Shown here piece by piece: positions 4,685 through 22,248 of a DNA stretch of 22,248 bases. The notes below the pieces were generated by a model. The model saw only the letters and a program-made list of their open reading frames with translations. It searched no databases and had not been told where the DNA came from. The translations under genes and the position numbers were made by a program. The first letter of the stretch is position 1. Each line of letters begins with the position of its first letter. Origin of the DNA: a virus (Duplodnaviria; Heunggongvirae; Uroviricota; Caudoviricetes); IMG/VR virus record IMGVR_UViG_2778261418_000019, positions 1-22,248 of that record. The stretch is one strand, 5' to 3'.

Positions 4685-5254
4685 ATGGCAAAAGTAAAAG
4701 ATGATGGAACAAGATATTCCTGGCAAGAAATTGCCGACCGATTCGGTGTGGAACATTCCACAGTATCCCGTATCTGGTCTGGTAAAGGACTGGATATTAC
4801 ATGGCCTAAGAAATTAGTAGACGACTGGTTACTTGCAAACGTAATCGAACCCCTACGCAATGGTGATACTAAAGGTCAAATACAAAAAGCAAACCTACGC
4901 AAACTAGAAGCAGAAGCAGACCTAAAAGAATTAGAACTACGTCAACAATCTGGTGAACTAATTCCGGTAGCAGTAGTACAGCAAACATTATCACAATATT
5001 TCTATCAACTAAGACAGGTACTAAGAAGTATTCCAGCGTCGAGTTATGTAGAACTATTTGAATCACAGGACGCCTTAGAATTAAAAATTAAATTACAGGA
5101 CAAGATAGACCGCCAGCTAGAAGAAATCGGCGGGTATGAATATGAGGGAACATATGAAGACCAACTACCAGAAGATGATGAAGATCCTAACGAGGGCGGC
5201 GAAGTCGATCCTACCTCCGAAGAAACAACTACCCGCAGAGTGGGTAGAGAGTAA
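4685..5254 (+). CDS. terS: terminase small subunit (Nu1-like, 189 aa)
   Basis: The N-terminal HTH-like segment is YSWQEIADRFGVEHSTVSRIW. A coiled-coil middle resembles lambda Nu1, and the tail is acidic. It lies immediately upstream of terL. Confidence 0.8.
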   Translation: MAKVKDDGTRYSWQEIADRFGVEHSTVSRIWSGKGLDITWPKKLVDDWLLANVIEPLRNGDTKGQIQKANLRKLEAEADLKELELRQQSGELIPVAVVQQTLSQYFYQLRQVLRSIPASSYVELFESQDALELKIKLQDKIDRQLEEIGGYEYEGTYEDQLPEDDEDPNEGGEVDPTSEETTTRRVGRE

Positions 5255-7049
5255 CCTAGTCTTCCCCGATGGCGAACTACAAGGGCAACGCGTCAAATTA
5301 TTTGCCTTTCAACATAAGCCCATCAACGATATAGTTAATCCACGTGTACGTAAAGTGGTACTAATGAGTAGTGCTCAACTTCTCAAAACAACGGTACTAC
5401 AGAATAGTATGTACTACTTCCTAGCCAATGATCCGAGTAACATGATCTTCGGTGGTGCTACTGGCGGTACTACAAGTAAATTCCGTACTGGTAAATGGCA
5501 GGCAGTCATAGAAGCATGTCCGGTGCTGAAAAATCTAGTTAGTAATAAGAATGATAAGAACTATACGAACAATGACAAGACACAACAAAATTTAGATGGT
5601 ACGTTTACCTACTTCCTGTCATTGGGTAGTAGTGCTTCCCTTCGTGGCCTTAGTTCGCCTCGCGTATTCCTAGACGAGATATCAAACGTAGACGCAGACG
5701 GGGATGAAGGCAACCCATTGAAGCTAGCCGAGCAGAGGACGAAAGCATTCTCTAACCCCCTTATTATGTGTTGTTCTACACCACTAGATGAACACGACCT
5801 GATTACTCAACAGTACGAGCAAAGTAATAAACAGAAGTTTTATGTACCGTGTCCACACTGTAACCACTCTCACGAAATGGTATTCGAGAATGTTAAATTT
5901 GAATGGAAGATCATAGAAGGTGGTCGCCGTCGTATCCCCGATGCAGATACTGCAAGATTAGAATGCCCAAAATGTAATAATGTAATCACCGAAGCAGAAC
6001 GTGTACGAATGATTCGTAGGGGTGAATGGGTAGTAACAGCACCAGAAGTAACCGATATAATGGGATATCACATATCTAGACTCTATTCCCCCATCAACTC
6101 CATAAAATCAATAGTAGCAGACTTTGCCGAAGCACATTATACCTTTGACCTTGCATCATTCTATAACAACGTCTTAGGACTACCATATATTGATAAAGAG
6201 AATACCGACCATGATTTGGTACTGTTAGAGAACCTACGCGATAGTGAAATAGATATTAATACCGTGCCAGATGATTGTCAGGGAATCGTATTTGGCGTAG
6301 ACCAACAGTTAGACCGTTTGGAAGTTACTACACTAGGAGTAAGTGAAAAGAATCTATATGTACTAGATCATAGAAGCATTTACGCAATTGACTGTACTAA
6401 GATCGAAGCACCAGCATGGAATAAGCTAACGGCCTTTGCAAATACACCATTTAAAACTAAATCGGGTAAACCATTGAAGGTACTGGCAGGATTCGTAGAT
6501 AGTTCGAACGGCAACGCAACTAGTACCGTATATCGCTATTGCAGTAGTTCTACTATCTTTAAACCAATCAAAGGTGGTACGTCTAACTCTAACCCACTAT
6601 TCAAAGATAGTACCGCTGGTGGTCACTCCCTGATTAACCTTAACGTAAACTTAGGCAAATCAAACGTCCGTCAATTACTCAACCGTGCTGTATCCGATAG
6701 TGAAAATAGTAAGGAAGTACAAATACATTTCAGTCATTCAGTACCGGATGATTACTTTATTCAGCTTACTTCCGAGAAGCGAGTAATAAAGGCTGGTGCC
6801 TGGGTATGGGTGAAGAAAGTTAGTTCGGCGAGAAATGAAACCCTTGATTGTCTTAATTACTCGCTTATATGTTTCCAGTGGTATCTATCCAAGTTAGGTA
6901 GTCAACCATTCCGACAACTAAGGGAATACAACGCTAAACAAAAAGAGAAAGCAGGACTAAATAAAGAAGTAAATACAGAAGAAGCACCAACTAAGCCAAC
7001 TCCAAAACGAGTAATAAGGCCGCGTAAAGGTGGTGGATTCTTTAAATAA
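5136..7049 (+). CDS. terL: terminase large subunit, GpA family (637 aa; alternative starts at 5142, 5154 and 5175)
   Basis: Blocks match lambda gpA: LPAEWVESNLVFP vs AVEWADANYYLP, GVDQQLDRLEV vs GIDSQLDRYEM, and RNETLDCLNYSL vs RNEALDCFVYAL. It also has CPHC...CPKC zinc-ribbon cysteines. Confidence 0.93.
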   Translation: MNMREHMKTNYQKMMKILTRAAKSILPPKKQLPAEWVESNLVFPDGELQGQRVKLFAFQHKPINDIVNPRVRKVVLMSSAQLLKTTVLQNSMYYFLANDPSNMIFGGATGGTTSKFRTGKWQAVIEACPVLKNLVSNKNDKNYTNNDKTQQNLDGTFTYFLSLGSSASLRGLSSPRVFLDEISNVDADGDEGNPLKLAEQRTKAFSNPLIMCCSTPLDEHDLITQQYEQSNKQKFYVPCPHCNHSHEMVFENVKFEWKIIEGGRRRIPDADTARLECPKCNNVITEAERVRMIRRGEWVVTAPEVTDIMGYHISRLYSPINSIKSIVADFAEAHYTFDLASFYNNVLGLPYIDKENTDHDLVLLENLRDSEIDINTVPDDCQGIVFGVDQQLDRLEVTTLGVSEKNLYVLDHRSIYAIDCTKIEAPAWNKLTAFANTPFKTKSGKPLKVLAGFVDSSNGNATSTVYRYCSSSTIFKPIKGGTSNSNPLFKDSTAGGHSLINLNVNLGKSNVRQLLNRAVSDSENSKEVQIHFSHSVPDDYFIQLTSEKRVIKAGAWVWVKKVSSARNETLDCLNYSLICFQWYLSKLGSQPFRQLREYNAKQKEKAGLNKEVNTEEAPTKPTPKRVIRPRKGGGFFK

Positions 7050-7059
7050 GGAAAATAAA

Positions 7060-7551
7060 ATGGCAATAGTTCGCAAAGTAACCCTAAGAGGCGATATCTT
7101 TAAAGGCGAGACTATTACATTCGATTACCCCGCAGGGTCAGAAGTAGACTTGATTGATCCAAACGGGGTAAAGACCTCATATACATATCCCTTCCCAGAT
7201 ATTGATACTAGTAACTGGGTAGCGGGTGTATGGACTGCAATTATTAACAGTACCGTAGCATATGGTGTACAACAATTCGAAGTAATAGATCCAACTTCTA
7301 AAGCGTCAGAATATAACGACCTGATGCAAATCATCAAAGATATTGATCAAATCATCATGGATAGAATTAAAGGCGGTGGTGTACTAAGTCAATCAATCCA
7401 AAATAAATCATTAACATATGAAAGTAGCGAAATACTTATGAAACTACGCCCTGTATATGTCAGTCGTGCAAATGATTTACTTTCGGATATGAAAGGCTTC
7501 AATACTGGATGTCCTATCAAATCAATTACTACATTTAGGAGATCTAGATAA
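7060..7551 (+). CDS. head-tail joining protein with a gpW-like C-terminal half and an extra ~85-aa N-terminal domain (163 aa)
   Basis: ATG at 7060 follows AAGGAAA (the track start 7030 is a GTG inside terL). The C-terminal part GGGVLSQSIQNKSLTYESSEILMKLRPVY fits the gpW pattern [28 protein letters not shown]. It sits between terL and the portal, as W does in lambda. Confidence 0.5.
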   Translation: MAIVRKVTLRGDIFKGETITFDYPAGSEVDLIDPNGVKTSYTYPFPDIDTSNWVAGVWTAIINSTVAYGVQQFEVIDPTSKASEYNDLMQIIKDIDQIIMDRIKGGGVLSQSIQNKSLTYESSEILMKLRPVYVSRANDLLSDMKGFNTGCPIKSITTFRRSR

Positions 7552-9047
7552 TGTTCGGATGGAATAAAAAGAAAGTAGAAGAACCTAAACAAAAAGTTTT
7601 AGTACAGAAGCCAGTGAAGCTAATGAAGAATAACCCAATGAAACGAGCAATGACTTCCCTGAATTTGGGATCATCTAGCCCTGTTATCTCATTTGGCTTC
7701 ACTGGTGGTAATCAGGCTGGCAATATTAACGCCATCATTAACCGTACACTACCCGTAATGGTAGCCGTTAGTCGTGAACTATCAATCAAGAACGGTATTG
7801 TAAAAAAATATGTTAGTACGAATAGTGCAGGTGTAACGGGTGCAGATGGCCTATATATTCGCCCTTGTACGCATAGCTCCGACGACGAACAGGTTAACCA
7901 GTCAATCGATAAACAGATTGAAGATGCGTTTTACACGTGGGCCGAAGATCCTAAAGCGTTTTCCCGCTGCGGTACTCTAGATATCAGTACCTTCCAACGT
8001 CTGGTAGAACGTACTCGATCAGTAGATGGTGATTGTTTCATTCGCGTTCACAGTAAGCCAGGAGAGCTACCACAGATTGAGATTATCGATTCTATGCGTA
8101 TCTCGACCTATGAGAACCAATTACTACCAAGTGGTAACTATATTAGTAATGGTATTGAATTTGATATTAATACTAACCGACCTGTAGCTTATTGGGTAAC
8201 ACGTTATAACCCCATCATGTACAACTATATGATTGGTGAGCGTGAACGAGTACCAGCCGACGAGATCCTACACCTATTTCAGCAGGACTATCCAACACAG
8301 CAACGCGGTATTCCAGATGTGCATTCCGGTACTGAAAAGTTAAAAGAGTTAGAGGAATTTATGTCGGCGGCAATTACTTCCCGAAAGGTTGCAGCGTCCG
8401 CAATGGCCTTTATTACTAACCCTGATAGTGATGACGTACAGCTACTGACTGATGATAGTGTATCGTACTATGATCAGGACTATCTAAATCCGGCTGCAAT
8501 CGTAGAACTACAGGCAGGTCAGGATATTAAAACAGTAAACCCAACACAGACTACCGATGGTATACAAGAGTTTATTGATAACCAAATGATGATGATTGCA
8601 ATGGGATTAGATATTACAAAACAATCTCTAACTTCTGATACTAGTAATGCTTCATTCAGTGCTGCAAAGTTAACTGATAAATTACAGCAATCAACATTTA
8701 AAAGCCGTACTAATGCTTTAATTGTATCCGTACTGAAACCTCTTTATATTGCATGGCTAAAATCTGCAATGCTAAATAATAGTACATTAAGCAATTTAAA
8801 TTTTAGTGATTTTAATAAATTAACTCATGCACAATATGTACAGACGCGTCAAATCTCCCTAGATCCATATAAAGACCTTCAAACCGAAGTATTAGCAATT
8901 GATAACGGTTTAAAGAGTAAGGCAATGGTAATTTCGGAGATGGGATACGATCCGGTTATTGTCATGGAAGAAATCAACAAGGAAAATAAAGAAAATGGAA
9001 TTGAACAAGAACCAGACGAGGGCGATCAATCTAACGCAGATCAATAA
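7551..9047 (+). CDS. portal protein, lambda (gpB) family (498 aa)
   Basis: Its size, its position after the terminase and W genes, and its TAATG coupling all fit. Sequence character is typical of lambda-family portals. Confidence 0.88.
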   Translation: MFGWNKKKVEEPKQKVLVQKPVKLMKNNPMKRAMTSLNLGSSSPVISFGFTGGNQAGNINAIINRTLPVMVAVSRELSIKNGIVKKYVSTNSAGVTGADGLYIRPCTHSSDDEQVNQSIDKQIEDAFYTWAEDPKAFSRCGTLDISTFQRLVERTRSVDGDCFIRVHSKPGELPQIEIIDSMRISTYENQLLPSGNYISNGIEFDINTNRPVAYWVTRYNPIMYNYMIGERERVPADEILHLFQQDYPTQQRGIPDVHSGTEKLKELEEFMSAAITSRKVAASAMAFITNPDSDDVQLLTDDSVSYYDQDYLNPAAIVELQAGQDIKTVNPTQTTDGIQEFIDNQMMMIAMGLDITKQSLTSDTSNASFSAAKLTDKLQQSTFKSRTNALIVSVLKPLYIAWLKSAMLNNSTLSNLNFSDFNKLTHAQYVQTRQISLDPYKDLQTEVLAIDNGLKSKAMVISEMGYDPVIVMEEINKENKENGIEQEPDEGDQSNADQ

Positions 9048-10857
9048 TGCAATTGATGAAAACGATAGAACTGTAGAACTCTCTTTTGCCTCCGAAATTC
9101 CAGTAGTACGCGATATTAAAGGGACTCTCTATAATGAGATCCTTTTATGCAGTCCTGAAAACGTAGATTTAAGCCGTCTAAATGACGGTGCACCTGTACT
9201 AGTAGAACATGATGCAATGCGTCAAGTTGGTATAGTTGAAAATGCTCGCGTAGATATGGATAAAGTATGTCGTGCTACTGTACGTTTTAGTGCTTTGGGT
9301 ACTGCAAATACTATCTTCGGAATGATCGTAGAAGGTATTCGCCCTAAAGTATCAGTAGGTTATAACATCCTAGATTACTATCTAGATGGTAATGATCTAA
9401 TCGTTTCCAAATGGCAACCATACGAAGTATCAAGCGTATCCACTCCCGCAGATAATAGCGTAGGTGTAGGAAGATCACTAAATAGTAATGATGAAATTAC
9501 TTTAGAGGATCAACCCCAAATGGAACCAGAACAAAAAGAAGAACTAGTACAGGAAGTAAAAATTATTGAAAAAGCACCACAAGAAGAAGTGCAATCAGAA
9601 GTAGTTGAAGAATCCGTAGTAGTCGAAAGTGAAGAATCAGTAGAAGTAGTAGAAGTTGAAGTAATCGAGGAAGTACAAGAAGATGTACAACCGGAATTAG
9701 TAGAAGAACGTTCTATTGCAGTAACTGATATTCAAGAAAGTATAAATAAAGAAGTAGAAGCAAATCGTATTCGCGAACTTCAATCTATTTCTTCGGTACT
9801 AGGTGTTAGTACCGAAGAAGCAATTAAAAACGGTGTAAGCGTAGAAGACTTTAAACGCTCACTACTAAATAAAGATAACAAATCAATTGATAAGGAAATC
9901 AAACAAATGGATAAAAAATCTCTAATCGCCGAAGGTCTACGTAGTCTAAAAGGCGAAGCAAACGAACTAGCAACCTTCGAAAAAGGTACACGCGGTTATA
10001 ATGCAGATCTTAATGCTATGGTACGTTCTACTGCCGATACCACTTCTACCGTCACTGCCGCAGGTCTTGTAAAAGAAGAATTAGCAGATGCCTATATTCG
10101 CCAACTACTTGCACGTACCGTACTAGGTGAACTACCAGTTACCGTCTTTGGTGGTCTTGCTGGTCGTGGTAATTTCTCTATCCCACGTGCAAAAGGTATG
10201 AACCCAGTAGCACGTTTCTATGGTGAAGATGAAGCAGTATCCGATGGCTTCGAAACCTTCGATAAGATCACTCTAAAGCCTCGCATGTTCGCAGCAGGTA
10301 TCAAGATCACTAAAGCAATGCTACTAAGCAACGCAGCTACCGAACGTTATGTAACTGATGAGCTACTACGCCAATGTTCTAACGGTCTAGAATCAGCAGT
10401 ATTTACACAAATCGCTAATACCGTTCCAGTACAGGAAACCGCAGCAGTAGGTACAGTAACCGAAGCAGACGTACAGAAAGCAATTGAGGCACTAGGTGTA
10501 GCAAACGTTGATATCAACCGTTGTGTTGCAATCGTCCACCCTTCTATGCTCGCTAAACTACGTCAGTATGCAATTTTGGGTAACACCAGTGCAGTAAGTG
10601 CTGTAGCAGGCCATCGCTATGATATGTGGTTGTGTGACGAAGTACGCGTAATTGAATCTACTTTCGTAGCAGCAGATGCAATTCTAATTGGTGACTTCTC
10701 CGAACTAATCTTTACTAACTGGAACGAAGGCCAAGAGCTGGATTTCGACGATACTACCTACCGTGCAGCACAAACTATCGCAATCCGTAGCTTCCAGTAC
10801 CTTGATGTAGCTATTGCACACGAAGAATCATTCGTACAAATCAAACTAAAAGCATAA
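8995..10857 (+). CDS. fused prohead protease (HK97/S78-type), acidic linker with scaffold-like region, and HK97-fold major capsid protein (620 aa from ATG 8995)
   Basis: The N-terminal part has PVLVEHD...KVSVGY...YEVSSVSTPAD, the protease His and Ser blocks. Bases 9490-9710 encode an E/V-rich linker. The ANRIRELQSI...AIKNGVSVEDFKRSLL motif is scaffold- or delta-like. The C-terminal ~290 aa have HK97 MCP character (AILIGDFSELIFTNWNEGQELDFDD...IAIRSFQYLDVAI). The track start 8959 is a TTG. Confidence 0.85.
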   Translation: MELNKNQTRAINLTQINNAIDENDRTVELSFASEIPVVRDIKGTLYNEILLCSPENVDLSRLNDGAPVLVEHDAMRQVGIVENARVDMDKVCRATVRFSALGTANTIFGMIVEGIRPKVSVGYNILDYYLDGNDLIVSKWQPYEVSSVSTPADNSVGVGRSLNSNDEITLEDQPQMEPEQKEELVQEVKIIEKAPQEEVQSEVVEESVVVESEESVEVVEVEVIEEVQEDVQPELVEERSIAVTDIQESINKEVEANRIRELQSISSVLGVSTEEAIKNGVSVEDFKRSLLNKDNKSIDKEIKQMDKKSLIAEGLRSLKGEANELATFEKGTRGYNADLNAMVRSTADTTSTVTAAGLVKEELADAYIRQLLARTVLGELPVTVFGGLAGRGNFSIPRAKGMNPVARFYGEDEAVSDGFETFDKITLKPRMFAAGIKITKAMLLSNAATERYVTDELLRQCSNGLESAVFTQIANTVPVQETAAVGTVTEADVQKAIEALGVANVDINRCVAIVHPSMLAKLRQYAILGNTSAVSAVAGHRYDMWLCDEVRVIESTFVAADAILIGDFSELIFTNWNEGQELDFDDTTYRAAQTIAIRSFQYLDVAIAHEESFVQIKLKA

Positions 10858-10869
10858 GGTACTTTCACT

Positions 10870-11190
10870 ATGAGGCATTTTACTAGTAATCAAATTGATT
10901 CTACTTTTCTAAATGCCTTTGGTGAACCTATCACAATTAACGGGGCGACGTTTACAGCAATTGTAGATAATCGCCCCGTAGTCGTAGATAGCGGTACTGA
11001 AGGGATTGTAGAAAGTACAGAAACATTTCTATCAGTAAAGACTGATGACCTATCTACTTACAGTATCGCAATTGATTCCGTAGTAGGCGTACAGGGTACT
11101 AACTACACTGTATATAATATCTATAATGATTTGAGTGGTATCAGTGAAGTTTACATTAGACCATCAACAATTAATAATTACGGGTGGTAA
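10870..11190 (+). CDS. head-tail connector, gpFII-like (106 aa)
   Basis: Positioned after the capsid gene. The pattern FLNAFGEPITINGATFTAIVDN...FLSVKTDDL...VVGVQGTNYTVYNIYND resembles lambda FII. Confidence 0.5.
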   Translation: MRHFTSNQIDSTFLNAFGEPITINGATFTAIVDNRPVVVDSGTEGIVESTETFLSVKTDDLSTYSIAIDSVVGVQGTNYTVYNIYNDLSGISEVYIRPSTINNYGW

Positions 11191-11191
11191 T

Positions 11192-11584
11192 ATGAATCTT
11201 CTAACTCAAGTACAGAAAACTATTAGAGACAGTTTAAATAATATCATGCCAATTCGTAAAGCAATGAATATTGCAGCAGGGCGTGATCTCTTTATTCTCG
11301 TTTCAACCAATCAAACCTACCAATCTGTAAACTATAATAATCAAAATCAAATGGGTAACTTTAACTTTCAATTCCTATTAGTACCGGAACCTTCAATCAA
11401 TTTACCCGCCGACACCTTCGGTACTATTTTTGATTACTTCCGTACTAATACTATCATGGAATTTGGTAATAATGGTGTACAACTTCATAGTTATGACGTA
11501 GCAGACAGTGAACTAGTAACAGATCCGTCAACTGGTTATCAATCGCTATCTTTTGCAATAAATATTGTAGCGACTCTAAGATAA
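11192..11584 (+). CDS. tail completion or tail terminator-like protein (130 aa)
   Basis: ATG at 11192 lies 1 nt after the upstream TAA (the track start 11135 is a GTG). The call is positional only. Confidence 0.4.
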   Translation: MNLLTQVQKTIRDSLNNIMPIRKAMNIAAGRDLFILVSTNQTYQSVNYNNQNQMGNFNFQFLLVPEPSINLPADTFGTIFDYFRTNTIMEFGNNGVQLHSYDVADSELVTDPSTGYQSLSFAINIVATLR

Positions 11585-11599
11585 AAGGAATTACAAAAG

Positions 11600-15334
<3,735 letters not shown>

Positions 15335-15341
15335 ATAAACG

Positions 15342-15364
15342 GTAGGGAAAAGGACTTTCCCTAC
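15342..15364 (+). terminator. 9-bp stem-loop after the fibre-fusion gene (no U-tract)
   Basis: GTAGGGAAA (15342-15350), loop AGGAC, TTTCCCTAC (15356-15364). Confidence 0.35.
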
Positions 15365-15394
15365 TAATCCAACTTATATAAGGAAATAAAAAAT

Positions 15395-15853
15395 ATGGCT
15401 ATGTCTATTATGACTGGTGCTAACCTAAAAGTAGAGTTAGGCACTTATACCGCTGGTAGCTCTACCGCTGCCGCAGATTTTCAAGAAATCCCAGAAGTGG
15501 CAGCATTCGCTACTAGTGGTTTTGAATCTACTGTTATTGATGTTGTTACTTACAACTCTGCTTATAATCGCAAGCTACTAGGAACAAAATCCGTGCCTGA
15601 TTGTGAACTAACTGTTAACTATCTAGCAGATAACGCAGTACACCAAAAGTTAGAACAACTTGCAGATGATCAGGTACGTACTCAGGTTAAAATCACCTAC
15701 TACGAAAACGCAACCCGTACAACTGGCTTCTTCGTAATCTACAATGCTTTCGTATCTTCAAACTTGATCGCAGGTAGTAAAGACGAAGTAGTGACTAAGG
15801 CATTTACACTAGCTGTAGATGGTGGTCCAATCCAATCCGGTATTAATGCTTAA
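15395..15853 (+). CDS. major tail (tube) protein (152 aa)
   Basis: Strong AAGGAA RBS. It lies directly upstream of the G/GT chaperones and tape measure, has a typical size, and is followed by triple stops and a strong terminator. Confidence 0.8.
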   Translation: MAMSIMTGANLKVELGTYTAGSSTAAADFQEIPEVAAFATSGFESTVIDVVTYNSAYNRKLLGTKSVPDCELTVNYLADNAVHQKLEQLADDQVRTQVKITYYENATRTTGFFVIYNAFVSSNLIAGSKDEVVTKAFTLAVDGGPIQSGINA

Positions 15854-15861
15854 TAATAAAT

Positions 15862-15898
15862 AAGAGTGATGGAGTAATCCACACTCTTTTTTTATTTT
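15862..15898 (+). terminator. rho-independent terminator after the major tail gene
   Basis: AAGAGTG(A)TGGA, loop GTAA, TCCACACTCTT gives an 11-bp stem with one bulge, followed by TTTTTATTTT. Confidence 0.8.
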
Positions 15899-15915
15899 AC
15901 ACAGGAATTATAAAC

Positions 15916-16214
15916 ATGAATCTACAGAACATTCTAAATAAACTATCTCCAAAAAAACACGCGTACGAAATCGAAGGCGAAACTATCTATATTCATCGTG
16001 CACGTTCAAAGGATATCGAAGCTCTAAACACTCCACTAAAAGCAGTAGTAGTATGTACTTGTGATGAAAATGGTGATCCAATTTTCAGTACCGAAGATAT
16101 CGAAGGACGTATTAACCTCAATGCGTTAGATTCAGAACACGTATCAAAAATCTATCTCGCAATCATCGAACTCTATAAAGATCCCGAAGATATTCAGGAC
16201 GAAATCGAAAAAAA

Positions 16215-16218
<4 letters not shown>
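15916..16218 (+). CDS. tail assembly chaperone, gpG-like (100 aa)
   Basis: It sits between the tube and tape measure genes and ends ...GAA AAA AAA TAA at a slippery run. Confidence 0.85.
16209..16215 (+). promoter_or_regulatory. -1 programmed ribosomal frameshift site A AAA AAA
   Basis: An A8 run (16208-16215) lies at the last two codons of gpG. The -1 frame is open from 16215 straight into the 16284-16598 ORF. Confidence 0.75.
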
Positions 16219-18808
<2,590 letters not shown>

Positions 18809-18812
18809 TTAT

Positions 18813-18834
18813 AAAGGGGGCTTAGGCTCCCTTT
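18813..18834 (+). terminator. possible terminator after the tape measure gene
   Basis: AAAGGGGGC, loop TTAG, GCTCCCTTT gives 9 pairs including one G-U. Only a weak T-rich run follows. Confidence 0.4.
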
Positions 18835-18875
18835 ATTCGTATAAATATAATAGAAATCTATAAAAGGAATTTAAA

Positions 18876-19430
18876 ATGATTAACTTTACTAAAGCAATTA
18901 AAGTATCTGGATTCAGTTTGAAATCTACGCAACCAATGTATGAACATCAATCATGGACAGGTAAAGTTTTACAGCGTGGAACCGGAATACAATACTATGA
19001 AGCAGAATTTACACTAACCTATAACATTTCAGACCGTCACGAAGTAGACCAGTTTTTAGCACTACATTCATTGGGTAAACCATTTCAAATGGACTTAGGA
19101 CACCTATCAACCTATACAGGTACACAAACGGCAGCAGTTACCAGTACCACAGCAAAGGCGGCAGGAAGTGCAACTATCAATACATCTACTCAATCTTTAC
19201 GTGTTGGTGATCGCATCCAGTTTACTAACCATACGAAAATATATTCCATTATTGACCGAACTAATACTAGCGTTACTATCTTCCCTGCATTACGTCAGAG
19301 TGTAGCAACTGGCGAGATCATCAAGTACAGCAATATTACAATCACAGGCATCCTTAAAGCCGAGAATACATACGTTTGTCCAGTTACTAACGTTACTACC
19401 CAAAAATTAACAGTATGGGAGAATCTCTAA
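18876..19430 (+). CDS. distal or minor tail protein, gpM-like (184 aa)
   Basis: It is the first gene after the tape measure. The N-terminal pattern (SWTGKVLQRGTG...EAEFTLTYNISDRHEVDQFLALHSLGKPF) resembles lambda gpM (FGDGYSQRAP...YSVTLSVPREEATVLESFLEEHGGWKSF). Confidence 0.5.
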   Translation: MINFTKAIKVSGFSLKSTQPMYEHQSWTGKVLQRGTGIQYYEAEFTLTYNISDRHEVDQFLALHSLGKPFQMDLGHLSTYTGTQTAAVTSTTAKAAGSATINTSTQSLRVGDRIQFTNHTKIYSIIDRTNTSVTIFPALRQSVATGEIIKYSNITITGILKAENTYVCPVTNVTTQKLTVWENL

Positions 19431-20066
19431 ATGGCACTTGATACAATCTCGACTAATGCAAATCTACTAAAATATTGGAACTTAACCCGCAATAGTGGGA
19501 CACCAAAAACTAAACTATCTGATCAAGAAATAATGAGTATGGGTCAGCACGTAACATGCTTTGATGTATTCCCAAAAAATGCAAATGGTATTCACTGGAC
19601 TGATGCTTTTATTAATATCGATATGAATAGTGTAACCTATCTATCTTTCCCCGATATTGTACAGGACTCACTACCAGCATTTAGCGAAGAAAAAGGAATT
19701 AGTAATAATGCCATCTCTTTTAAAGTAAGTAATATTGATAACTCAGTACAGATGCTTGCTCTCTCAGGTGGTCTATTCAAAGCTAAAATTAATATCTATA
19801 TGGTAATCCTTGATCCCTATACTACTACACCACTCTATCAAATGTTGATGTTCTCTGGATTCATTGACTACTGTCAGGCAGTAGCTAACCCAATTGATGG
19901 AAAAACAGAGATGACAGTAAACGTAAATAGTATATTCCAAAAACTAGACGTTCAGACACGTACTATTGCAAGTAATAGCGTATATCAATCATATTACCCA
20001 GGCGATGAGTTTATGTCACTACTAGGACAGGTAAACCAAGCTAACCAAACATGGAAGATGAACTAA
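19431..20066 (+). CDS. minor tail protein, gpL-like position (211 aa)
   Basis: Second gene after the tape measure, adjacent TAA-ATG junction, size close to gpL. It lacks the C-terminal Cys cluster of lambda gpL. Confidence 0.45.
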   Translation: MALDTISTNANLLKYWNLTRNSGTPKTKLSDQEIMSMGQHVTCFDVFPKNANGIHWTDAFINIDMNSVTYLSFPDIVQDSLPAFSEEKGISNNAISFKVSNIDNSVQMLALSGGLFKAKINIYMVILDPYTTTPLYQMLMFSGFIDYCQAVANPIDGKTEMTVNVNSIFQKLDVQTRTIASNSVYQSYYPGDEFMSLLGQVNQANQTWKMN

Positions 20067-20458
20067 TGGCAAATTTACATAATGAAATAATGAAACATAT
20101 TGAAGATGCACTAGCTAACCCTTATTCCTTCGGTACTAATGATTGTAATATTGTTGCCTTACGAGTAGTTGATACTATTAAAGGTACTAAATGGTCAGAA
20201 GTAGCGGAATACTCATCTTTAAAAGAGGGAGTAGCACAACTACATGAACTAGGATTTAACAGTACACAAGATATTATCATTCAGGAATGTACACAGGTTG
20301 AAATCCCAATTGATGGTGATATTTGGCTAGATCCAGATAACCCATTGCTAATGGCAGTAGTGGTATCTGGTCGCCTATTGGGTGTCAATGATGAACATGA
20401 CGCTTTCGTACTAATCAATAAAAAGAAAAACGGAACTTACTATAGGAGTAACAAATAA
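20066..20458 (+). CDS. gpK-position protein, possible NlpC/P60-like (130 aa)
   Basis: TAATG-coupled ATG at 20066 with a GGAAGA RBS. GTNDCNIVALRVVD followed by DGDIWLD...MAVVVSG loosely fits the cysteine peptidase pattern. Confidence 0.4.
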   Translation: MANLHNEIMKHIEDALANPYSFGTNDCNIVALRVVDTIKGTKWSEVAEYSSLKEGVAQLHELGFNSTQDIIIQECTQVEIPIDGDIWLDPDNPLLMAVVVSGRLLGVNDEHDAFVLINKKKNGTYYRSNK

Positions 20459-22248
20459 TGGGTAGTGGTGGTGGAATATTCGGAGCACTAATAACGGCGG
20501 TCATGGTCGCGGCAGCAGTCTACACGGCTGGTACTTCTACACTATTAGTAGCGGCCTATTGGGGAGCGGCAGCAGGAGCACTATCATTAGTCGCTACCAG
20601 TATGCTAGGTCAGGTAGGAGGGCTTACGGGATACTCCGATGTAGCCAGTGCATTACAGCGTTCTACAAGTCCTACAAGTGGTTTACCTGTCATATATGGC
20701 GGTAGTGCACCACATAAAAACGGTGTATCTGGTGGCAGCTTCATTCTAACTGGTGTAATCAATAACTGGTATAACGTAAAAGATGATAGCTCTCAATATT
20801 TCTTTAGTGAGCAAGTCGTGTCAATGACAGGTACGGCAAAACATATTGAACAAATTTACATGGACGATGAACCAGTATTAGCAGTACCGATAACTACAGA
20901 TGGCGTAGTACCGAAAGCTAGTATCGTGTCTAAATTCCAACCGTATCTACAATTGGAAGTTAGATTTGGTGGTAATTACACAACCACAAAAACATTAGCA
21001 AAACAATATGCTGGGCCGAAATGGACTGATAAATTCTTAGGGAAAGGTGTAGTATCTATTTCATCGGTAATCTATAAAACCGAAGATTCCACAATGGATG
21101 GTATCCTCACTAATGATAACTTCAATATGACCGTAGAAATGAAAGGACAGGTAATCTATGATTTTAATAGTGGTACTAATTTCGCTACTTCATGCCCTGC
21201 AAGTCAGGTTTATGATTATCTCGTTAATACTACCTATGGTCTGGGACTAGAACCCGCTTTAATCAATCAGCAATCATTCTCTGAAGTTAGTCAATGGTGT
21301 TTCCAACAGGGACTAACTTCCAATATTAGTATGTCTTATCAGTCAACATATAAAGAGAATATAGAATCAATTCTACAGGCTTGTGGCGGTATTCTTTATG
21401 TACACGCAGGACAAGTTTGTATAACTGTAGACCGTAAAACTCTATCAGTACATACCTATGATGAATCAAATATTATTGGTGATGCAAGCGTATCTACTTC
21501 GGGTAATAATGACTACTATAATACAATTGATGCAACCTATACCGCAGTTAAGAACCAGTATACAAGCGATGTATTGCGTATTCCTTCGGATATTAGCACG
21601 GATGAAGCAATTAAGAGTGATGGTCTAGTTATTACCCTAGCACGTGATTTTAAAGCCGTATACGATGAAGAAGTAGTAGCACGACTAGTAAACGCCGAAC
21701 TACGTAAAACTAAATTCAGTCTACGTACTGTAACCTTTACCAGTGCCGAAGCGTGGGATCTCAAAGTATGGGATAGTATTACTGTTAATATCAAGGAATT
21801 GATGGTAGCTGGTAAGTTTAAGGTATTGAGTAAATCAGTAGCAACAGATCAACAGAACGTAGGCTTCTGTACTGTTACTTGTCTTGAATATCCTGATGCA
21901 ATCTTTGACGGTACAGATCCGGGTGTATGGAGTCCTGGCGGTGTTATCGGTGGTGGGTCAGCACGTATTGTACAACCTCCTACTAATCTAGTAATTACCC
22001 GCAAAGGTGATATTGTATCTGGCTCAGTAGTTAATATGTCGTGGACTGCTTCACCTTCTAGTAATGTTCGTGGTTACTATACATACTATCGCAAAACAGG
22101 TACAACCAACTGGACAGCAGCAGGTCAGACAGTACCGACACAGTTAGAGTTTGATTTATACGGACTAGATCCAGATACAAACTGTGACTTTGCAGTAGCT
22201 GCATATATGGATTTGCCCCTATATTTCCAGACACCTGTTATCACTTAA
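20458..22248 (+). CDS. tail tip / central fibre protein, gpJ-like with a gpI-like N-terminus (596 aa)
   Basis: The N-terminus GGGIFGALITAVMVAAAVYTAGTSTLLVAAYWGAAAGAL...GLPVIYGG resembles the lambda gpI C-terminal region. The middle matches J-like blocks. An FN3-like domain (PPTNLVITRKG...YYTYYRKTGTTNWT...FAVAAY) lies at the C-terminus. TAA falls exactly at the window end. Confidence 0.8.
   Translation: MGSGGGIFGALITAVMVAAAVYTAGTSTLLVAAYWGAAAGALSLVATSMLGQVGGLTGYSDVASALQRSTSPTSGLPVIYGGSAPHKNGVSGGSFILTGVINNWYNVKDDSSQYFFSEQVVSMTGTAKHIEQIYMDDEPVLAVPITTDGVVPKASIVSKFQPYLQLEVRFGGNYTTTKTLAKQYAGPKWTDKFLGKGVVSISSVIYKTEDSTMDGILTNDNFNMTVEMKGQVIYDFNSGTNFATSCPASQVYDYLVNTTYGLGLEPALINQQSFSEVSQWCFQQGLTSNISMSYQSTYKENIESILQACGGILYVHAGQVCITVDRKTLSVHTYDESNIIGDASVSTSGNNDYYNTIDATYTAVKNQYTSDVLRIPSDISTDEAIKSDGLVITLARDFKAVYDEEVVARLVNAELRKTKFSLRTVTFTSAEAWDLKVWDSITVNIKELMVAGKFKVLSKSVATDQQNVGFCTVTCLEYPDAIFDGTDPGVWSPGGVIGGGSARIVQPPTNLVITRKGDIVSGSVVNMSWTASPSSNVRGYYTYYRKTGTTNWTAAGQTVPTQLEFDLYGLDPDTNCDFAVAAYMDLPLYFQTPVIT

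Follow-up and report, generated by a model that had tools for sequence, protein, structure and literature searches.

How can a phage encode its head protease and its major capsid protein in one uninterrupted reading frame without making a protease for every subunit of the shell? The question is raised by a 22,248-nucleotide stretch of viral DNA (Caudoviricetes; IMG/VR record IMGVR_UViG_2778261418_000019, positions 1 to 22,248), referred to here as the window, and in particular by an open reading frame (ORF) at 8959..10857, which lies on the plus strand together with all of the sites described within it. A first-pass annotation, made from the letters alone, had divided this ORF into a protease, a Glu/Val-rich run, a helical segment, and a capsid protein, and all four parts are indeed found by hidden Markov models (HMMs) and a structural model. 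The answer that we favor, with a fair degree of confidence, is that this is a three-in-one head-assembly gene, the mRNA of which would be read from ATG codons at 8995, 9520, and 9907, each preceded by its own conserved Shine-Dalgarno (SD) sequence. It forms part of the same explanation, and seems to us reasonably probable, that the carrier of the gene is a temperate siphovirus-like prophage of Escherichia coli and related enterobacteria.

The frame runs from 8959 to 10857 without interruption, just as had been proposed, with every motif and segment in its expected place. Mechanically, the ORF opens with the TTG at 8959, but the true start is almost certainly the ATG at 8995, giving a product of 620 amino acids; the same start was chosen by the Prokaryotic Genome Annotation Pipeline (PGAP) in a 95%-identical E. 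coli prophage, and Met occupies this position in 110 of 119 aligned sequences (that of the window and those of 118 close homologues). On the evidence of the PGAP start and of PHROG 617, the full coding sequence, stop codon included, occupies 8995..10857 and encodes a protease-linker-scaffold-capsid polyprotein of 68.2 kDa. An SD-like AAGGAA for this full-length product (8979..8984) is found 10 nucleotides before the ATG, within the 3' end of the portal gene, and a motif of the same type also stands ahead of the first start in 44-45 unique related contexts.

Such a fusion might be artifactual or decaying, a sequencing error or recent mutation having erased the stop or frameshift that once separated a protease gene from a capsid gene, and the splitting of the tape measure gene into two ORFs in the same window could hint at errors in the sequence. 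The tape measure split recurs, however, in an independent complete genome, and the single ORF is widely kept. NCBI proteins from E. coli share 99% identity with the window protein, and the best 120 homologues listed, taken from independent assemblies of E. coli, Shigella, Citrobacter, Salmonella, and Enterobacter, include 118 of full length (585-621 amino acids), every one of them encoded by a single ORF. Among 80 viral contigs fetched, with 36-90% identity to the window protein, 73 contain one long ORF with protease motifs, the remainder being mostly truncated loci. Comparison with these sequences effectively refutes an artifactual origin, the chance of which we regard as negligible; the fusion is not an assembly error.

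Candidate internal start sites

Two further ATG codons in the same frame have the appearance of translation starts. The first of these (9520..9522) encodes Met176, which lies 16 residues past the last invariant residue of the protease, and is situated 10 nucleotides downstream of an SD-like GAGGA (9505..9509). As a candidate start, it would give a protease-free linker-scaffold-capsid product of 445 amino acids (48.9 kDa). The second (9907..9909) encodes Met305, located between the helical segment and the capsid domain, and is preceded at a distance of 9 nucleotides by an SD-like AAGGAA (9892..9897); initiation here would give a 316-amino acid (34.3-kDa) capsid protein with a short propeptide. 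The SD-like motifs of all three starts were read from the sequence itself. Internal initiation had been suggested in the first-pass annotation as something to look for, for example at the Met of the motif KQMDKKS, and this residue, Met305, does carry a conserved SD sequence and ATG.

Both Met176 and Met305 are invariant in all 119 of the aligned sequences (window and close homologues), and Met305 is also invariant in a second alignment of 15 sequences (A2), which was used to find related loci. The residues flanking Met176 vary freely in the 119-sequence alignment (QPQMEPEQ, QPIMEEQK, TQIMDENL, HQFMEEQE). An ATG located 14-38 residues past the end of the protease, with [GA]AGG 8-10 nucleotides upstream and GAA or GAT after it, is present in ~60 of 71 related genes, and the equivalent of GAGGA is [GA]AGG in ~38 of 41 unique related contexts. 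The residues that encode this post-protease SD sequence differ from gene to gene (LED, LKD, SEG, KEE, QEG, YKD, ERE, EE, GE, GG), which points to selection acting on the RNA rather than on the protein. Before the equivalent of Met305, TAAGGA or CAAGGA is found in essentially all 45 unique related contexts.

The strength of each SD sequence was expressed as the energy of its duplex with the tail of 16S rRNA, taken over the unique contexts of related genes. Annotated starts have a mean of -5.6 kcal/mol (44 unique contexts), post-protease ATGs of the Met176 type a mean of -5.5 kcal/mol (41 unique contexts), and Met305-equivalent ATGs a mean of -6.0 kcal/mol (35 unique contexts), as compared with -1.2 kcal/mol for all other in-frame ATGs (498). 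The differences from these other ATGs correspond to p=2e-22 for the Met176 type and p=1e-21 for the Met305 type. All 35 unique contexts of the Met305 equivalents, sites that were picked from the alignment column alone, score -5 kcal/mol or better, a value reached by 6% of the other in-frame ATGs. Codon choice follows the same pattern. For the Lys within the Met305 SD sequence, AAG is used by 64 of 64 genes, whereas its share gene-wide is 25%; adjacent Lys codons are AAA in 39 cases and AAG in 4. Upstream of Met176, Lys is encoded by AAG in 12 of 12 cases, and Glu is encoded by GAG in 39%, against 8% gene-wide.

The two internal SD sequences, their ATGs, and the spacing persist at protein identities as low as 36% and in hosts that differ in G+C content. 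A post-protease SD sequence and ATG are present in the cultured phages Alux-21 (M216), VP882 (M185), and CRP-821 (M537), which represent other subfamilies and other G+C contents, and in each of these the start leaves a product of 438-466 amino acids, compared with 445 in the window. A diverse alignment of 111 sequences was also made (mafft, fast mode), consisting of the window protein and 110 representatives, each at most ~60% identical to it. Across the 110 representatives, the frequency of Met at positions +11 to +20 past the end of the protease is 4.5%, as opposed to ~1.5% in neighboring bins, an enrichment of ~3-fold. The Met305-type start is present in all of the viral-contig loci; only within the window's own AT-rich subfamily is it clearly recognizable. 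An internal promoter was considered as another source of shorter products, and the scan returned no promoter-like site inside the gene; the sole plus-strand promoter-like site is at 8959-8987, just upstream of the ATG at 8995.

A number of observations weigh against the use of these sites. A Met of the M305 type is found in only 26 of the 110 wider-family representatives, and in 10 of the 71 related genes the first 60 residues past the protease contain no Met. The post-protease Met was taken as the Met with the best SD sequence in a 56-residue window, which introduces a mild selection bias, one from which the Met305 sites are free. Related sequences share ancestry, such that the counts are not independent; at 36-50% identity, however, synonymous sites have reached saturation. 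Coding sequence rich in Glu is also rich in purines, and SD-like strings are commoner in it than average; even so, against positions in the linker only, 78% of the sites are still placed among the top 10%. The case for the internal starts is also drawn entirely from the comparison of sequences.

These considerations bear on one alternative, namely a single-product polyprotein. Here, only the 620-amino acid chain would be made, every subunit of the shell would carry a protease and a scaffold of its own in a true 1:1 ratio, and the chains would be trimmed after assembly, the internal SD sequences and ATGs being either relics of once-separate genes or pause sites that aid the folding of the domains. 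The ORF is free of stops and its first start is well conserved, as this proposal would have it, and the annotation of such fusions in databases presumes one product. The absence of a post-protease Met from 10 of 71 relatives is likewise in its favor, and a rough calculation indicates that 415 copies of the 345-amino acid internal part, amounting to ~16 MDa, would fit within a T=7 procapsid. Relics, however, should decay, and the retention of ATG, SD sequence, and spacing to 36% identity and across differing host G+C contents is not what decay would produce. Nor does pausing need an ATG at a fixed distance of 8-10 nucleotides, and codon choice is biased toward the SD sequence. On balance, we consider production of a single chain possible but doubtful.

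If, as we favor, all three starts are used, the gene would give rise to a protease-scaffold-capsid protein of 68.2 kDa, a scaffold-capsid protein of 48.9 kDa, and a capsid protein of 34.3 kDa with a propeptide of ~40 amino acids. Because all three chains would share the capsid domain, they could co-assemble into one shell, with scaffold and protease parts pointing inwards and carried by only a fraction of the subunits. The protease would thereby be sub-stoichiometric, and it would reach the shell through its covalent tether and not with the aid of a targeting peptide. The doses would be set by the strengths of the start sites, and synthesis of the full-length product may be lowered further by the 53 nucleotides that the region of the first start shares with the translated end of the portal gene. 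Cleavage by the protease would follow assembly, both near Arg344/Ser345 and within the N-terminal parts, which would thereby be freed, leaving a mature capsid protein of ~30 kDa. The first-pass annotation had regarded stoichiometry as a problem, on the grounds that protease would be made 1:1 with capsid subunits; that premise is probably wrong because conserved internal SD sequences and ATGs are present at M176 and M305.

Protease, linker, and capsid domains

The N-terminal part of the protein (residues 1-160; 8995..9474) is predicted to be a prohead serine protease of the HK97 gp4/MEROPS S78 type with an assemblin fold. The histidine encoded at 9208..9210 (His72) and the serine encoded at 9352..9354 (Ser120) are the predicted catalytic histidine and nucleophile. 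Both are invariant in the 111-sequence diverse alignment, as are E144, D153, and R160, and hhalign pairs them with His65 and Ser114 of HK97 gp4, the catalytic residues of that enzyme. An AlphaFold2 model built from a 50-sequence alignment contains a well-folded N-terminal domain (residues ~10-160, predicted local distance difference test (pLDDT) >90), and on fold comparison this domain has the assemblin/prohead-protease fold. PHROG 4523, "major head and protease protein," is matched at 6e-41, and residues 5-617 align with positions 7-622 of the 626 in the profile of PHROG 617 (E=6e-89), of which the protein is a member, with its protease and capsid domains in one conserved ORF. The NCBIfam model NF045541, "prohead protease/major capsid protein fusion protein," matches residues 20-301 at 2.7e-36; the score of 125.4 bits is well under the 525-bit cutoff, with only profile positions 1-259 of 634 aligned, and by this comparison the window protein is a relative, and not an equivalent, of the seed proteins of that family.

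The search for a protease HMM match that had been recommended alongside the original assignment gives, if taken literally, a borderline outcome. Pfam Peptidase_S78 (PF04586) scores 15.9 bits (E=0.015), under its 21-bit cutoff, TIGR01543 scores 19.3 bits, under its 59-bit cutoff, and the hhalign match to HK97 gp4 that pairs the catalytic residues is weak (E=0.0098, probability 4%). Since both curated models fall below threshold, the protease call rests on the other HMMs (NF045541 and the PHROGs), the invariant residues, and the fold. Four independent lines of evidence settle the identity of the N-terminal domain as an HK97 gp4-type serine protease.

The same sub-threshold scores, and the fact that protease activity is here a prediction, could be taken to mean that the domain is a catalytically dead scaffold module with a protease fold and that the capsid protein is processed by another protease. 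Against this, His72 and Ser120 are paired with the catalytic residues of HK97 gp4 and, like E144 and D153, do not vary among 111 aligned sequences; nor was any other protease gene found by Pfam or PHROG match among the ORFs of 4685-22248, the part of the window that was scanned. The sole other peptidase-family match in that range is the Peptidase_S74 intramolecular chaperone domain of a tail fiber, which is not a head protease. A dead protease is, accordingly, very improbable in our estimation.

The protease is followed by a disordered acidic linker rich in Glu, Val, and Gln (residues 163-242; 9481..9720; pLDDT <50). In residues 166-239 (9490-9711), Glu accounts for 34%, Val for 22%, and Gln for 11%, the net charge being ~-24, and the slightly longer stretch of residues 161-242 is 30% Glu and 20% Val, again with a net charge of ~-24. 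Both the length and the sequence of the linker vary even between close homologues; its character is kept, and its sequence is not. The possibility that the Glu/Val run is a tandem-repeat array was examined and rejected, as it contains a single 9-nucleotide duplication only (9639-9656) and is otherwise low-complexity sequence. The acidic spacer would most likely serve as a flexible, non-sticky tether and space filler.

Beyond the linker, the AlphaFold2 model has a helical segment resembling a scaffold or delta domain (residues 243-293; 9721..9873). Its helices span residues 243-269, 274-278, and 283-293, with pLDDT ~86-89, and a second, short disordered stretch follows at residues 295-306. Alignment A2 (15 sequences) shows no variation at R258, E261, or S282. 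When the family profile is compared by hmmsearch with full-length HK97 gp5 (3QPR), the alignment begins at gp5 residue 47, within the delta domain, and with the capsid protein of the Rhodobacter capsulatus gene transfer agent (RcGTA) it begins at residue 20. The hhalign match to HK97 gp5 begins only at gp5 residue 107, and residues 236-352 of the window protein have no Pfam family match.

The identity of the C-terminal domain, which spans residues ~345-620, as an HK97-fold major capsid protein, as had been proposed, is well supported, with two models exceeding their curated cutoffs. PF05065 (Phage_capsid) matches residues 358-617 (10066..10845) with 59.3 bits against a cutoff of 24.2 (5e-16), and TIGR01554 scores 60.8 bits against 27.5 (1e-16). 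The hhalign probability for the capsid domain against HK97 gp5 is 97%, and the family profile matches the capsid protein of roseophage R4C (8GTA) at 2.4e-69, HK97 gp5 at ~1e-17, and the RcGTA capsid protein at 3e-17. In the AlphaFold2 model, the domain is confidently folded from around residue 362, with pLDDT mostly 85-96 over the capsid stretch.

The maturation site of this domain is predicted from alignment. HK97 gp5 residue 107 lies opposite window residue 350 in the hhalign alignment, and gp5 is cleaved between K103 and S104, on which basis cleavage of the window protein is predicted near residues 344-348. The predicted site is the bond between Arg344 and Ser345 (10024..10029). A cut here would yield a mature protein of ~276 amino acids, a size similar to that of mature HK97 gp5 and to the 268-amino acid chain of R4C.

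Related systems and gene neighborhood

By descent, the window gene is the fused equivalent of HK97 gp4 and gp5. It shares with them a protease of the same family with aligned catalytic His and Ser, a capsid domain of the same fold preceded by delta-like helices, and an arrangement in which protease and then capsid come directly after the portal gene. In HK97, a stop divides gp4 from gp5, each with a gene of its own, and gp4 is brought to the capsid by its own C-terminal targeting region. The window gene differs in having no stop, in the addition of an acidic spacer of ~80 amino acids, and in the company of terminase and portal genes that are lambda-type and not HK97-type.

A second comparison is with nested genes. 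In lambda C/Nu3, Mu I/Z, and herpesvirus UL26/UL26.5, in-frame internal initiation yields a long chain bearing the protease and a commoner, protease-free chain. The two chains share the same C terminus, an arrangement that sets their stoichiometry and co-packages the protease. The shared C terminus in those systems is a scaffold that binds a separate capsid protein, whereas in the window it is the capsid protein itself. Furthermore, the window gene apparently has two internal starts where lambda C/Nu3-type systems have one. Lambda C is a protease of another family, and neither Peptidase_S49 nor lambda-scaffold families are among the Pfam, NCBIfam, and PHROG matches of the window protein. The likeness to lambda C/Nu3 is thus one of mechanism, if the internal starts are used, and not of ancestry.

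Other fusions have been described. In the lambdoid genome of Pseudomonas phage MD8, a protease, a scaffold, and a capsid protein were proposed in 2021 to reside in one gene, encoding the 693-amino acid gp5, the protease part of which resembles lambda C and the capsid part that of Mu; internal starts were not discussed (PMC8508860). The fusions of the phages ECO1230-10/ep3/Alux-21, VP882/phiHAP-1, and PPpW-3 have a protease of the same N-terminal subfamily as the window protein (35-47% identity), and the capsid halves of most of these cultured phages are too diverged to be detected by tblastn. The homologous head gene of Roseobacter phage CRP-821 (L085 1403-4327) encodes 974 amino acids, with ~400 extra residues before the protease domain, and would be a four-part fusion. 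For the capsid domain, the closest solved structure is the R4C capsid (8GTA), which is matched in a single-sequence comparison at E=3e-6. R4C was not retrieved by single-sequence tblastn with the capsid half of the window protein. The R4C capsid gene (006) directly follows the portal gene (005), as in the window, and the deposited chain of 268 amino acids begins at about the predicted mature N terminus of the window protein. We found no description of internal initiation in protease-capsid fusions in the open-access literature, and prior work may therefore exist outside it.

As the first-pass annotation had it, the interval from the portal gene (7551-9047) to the FII-like gene (10870-11190) holds neither a separate scaffold gene nor a decoration gene. 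The large terminase subunit (TerL) is of the gpA type, and the portal protein belongs to the lambda family. The first-pass annotation was correct in placing the head module among lambda-type terminase, portal, and FII genes, but the oddity that it implied is not supported, since genes of this family normally stand in such surroundings. The same order is seen in the cultured phages Alux-21 and VP882, with TerL, a gene of ~175 amino acids, a lambda-type portal gene, and the fused gene, and CRP-821 has a portal gene and then the fused gene, at a locus that ends before reaching further upstream. The gene at 7030-7551 (+), which had been labeled W, merits that name by position only. It encodes 173 amino acids and matches PHROG 5774, "head-tail joining," without any Pfam match, and lambda W is far shorter. 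A gene of ~175 amino acids occupies the W position in Alux-21 and VP882 also.

The first 53 nucleotides of the fused gene (8995-9047) are shared with the 3' end of the portal gene. An overlap of the upstream gene with the start of the fusion is present in all 54 distinct related loci for which an upstream gene was found, ranging from 23 to 71 nucleotides and mostly from 44 to 65. With its length and conservation, the overlap may serve to couple or to limit the translation of the full-length chain that carries the protease.

Farther downstream, the tail genes have features of their own. The ORF at 11600-15334 (+) encodes a 1,244-amino acid protein, the N-terminal ~140 amino acids of which are a paralogue of the downstream tail tube protein (15395-15853, +), with 32% identity (E=9e-21). 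The remainder continues as a tail fiber and ends in the Peptidase_S74 intramolecular chaperone domain (residues 1131-1185). This fusion of tube subunit and fiber, which is also annotated in an independent E. coli genome, might place fibers on the tail tube or at the neck. Between the tube and tape measure genes are two small ORFs, 15916-16218 (+) and 16284-16598 (+), the first of which matches a tail assembly chaperone PHROG. Because they are 65 nucleotides apart and do not overlap, the usual G/GT-type -1 frameshift layout is not evident. The tape measure gene itself is split into ORFs of 130 amino acids (16600-16992, +) and 589 amino acids (17039-18808, +), in different frames and 46 nucleotides apart, which match positions 1-137 and 156-756 of PHROG 13674. 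The split is probably not a sequencing error, since NZ_CM151386 annotates the same arrangement; two genes, a programmed frameshift, or decay are all possible explanations.

Distribution and significance of the fusion

Fusions of this type had been thought to be annotated only sporadically, a view that does not survive a broader search. When the protease domain by itself was used as the query of an exhaustive HMMER search, 5,097 clusters, defined at 50% identity, were retrieved with E<=1e-3, and 2,471 with E<=1e-10. Among the best 150 clusters, 117 have at least 500 amino acids, and fusions of ~600 amino acids make up most of the top matches, indicating that this protease subfamily is normally found fused; of the shorter proteins, many resemble fragments cut off by a contig end or a frameshift. 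The fusion is named in NCBIfam NF045541 and PHROG 4523 and in actinobacteriophage annotation, with papers on those phages using the term "capsid and protease fusion." The layout is therefore already known and widespread, and the conserved internal ribosome-binding sites are what the present analysis adds.

The prophage that carries the gene is uncommon in E. coli, the gene being found at >=90% identity in only 2 of 5,426 complete genomes. The window has a G+C content of 38.7%, well below the ~51% of E. coli, and related viral contigs of ~30 kb are common in metagenome-derived collections. The carrier is an AT-rich prophage lineage that is apparently either recently acquired or of broad host range.

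The way in which these proteins are named has consequences. PGAP labels the window protein just "phage major capsid protein," and PGAP and most phage records call such proteins of ~600 amino acids plain "major capsid protein." These names conceal the protease and the scaffold in thousands of phages and prophages, the genomes of which then look as if they were without either. Nested starts would matter in addition for gene callers and for proteomics searches, which give one product per ORF.

If the internal starts are used, they would explain how a fused gene escapes the burden of one protease per capsid subunit, and they would provide a simple, genetically tunable system for studying how capsid assembly depends on the dose of scaffold and protease, as each start could be weakened separately through synonymous substitutions. 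Whether this applies to the family as a whole we judge to be an evenly balanced matter: a large family of phage head genes, comprising thousands of clusters, may act as triple nested genes in which the ratio of start strengths sets the doses of the procapsid. Were this true, the principle embodied by lambda C/Nu3 and herpesvirus UL26/UL26.5 would be extended to the shell protein itself.

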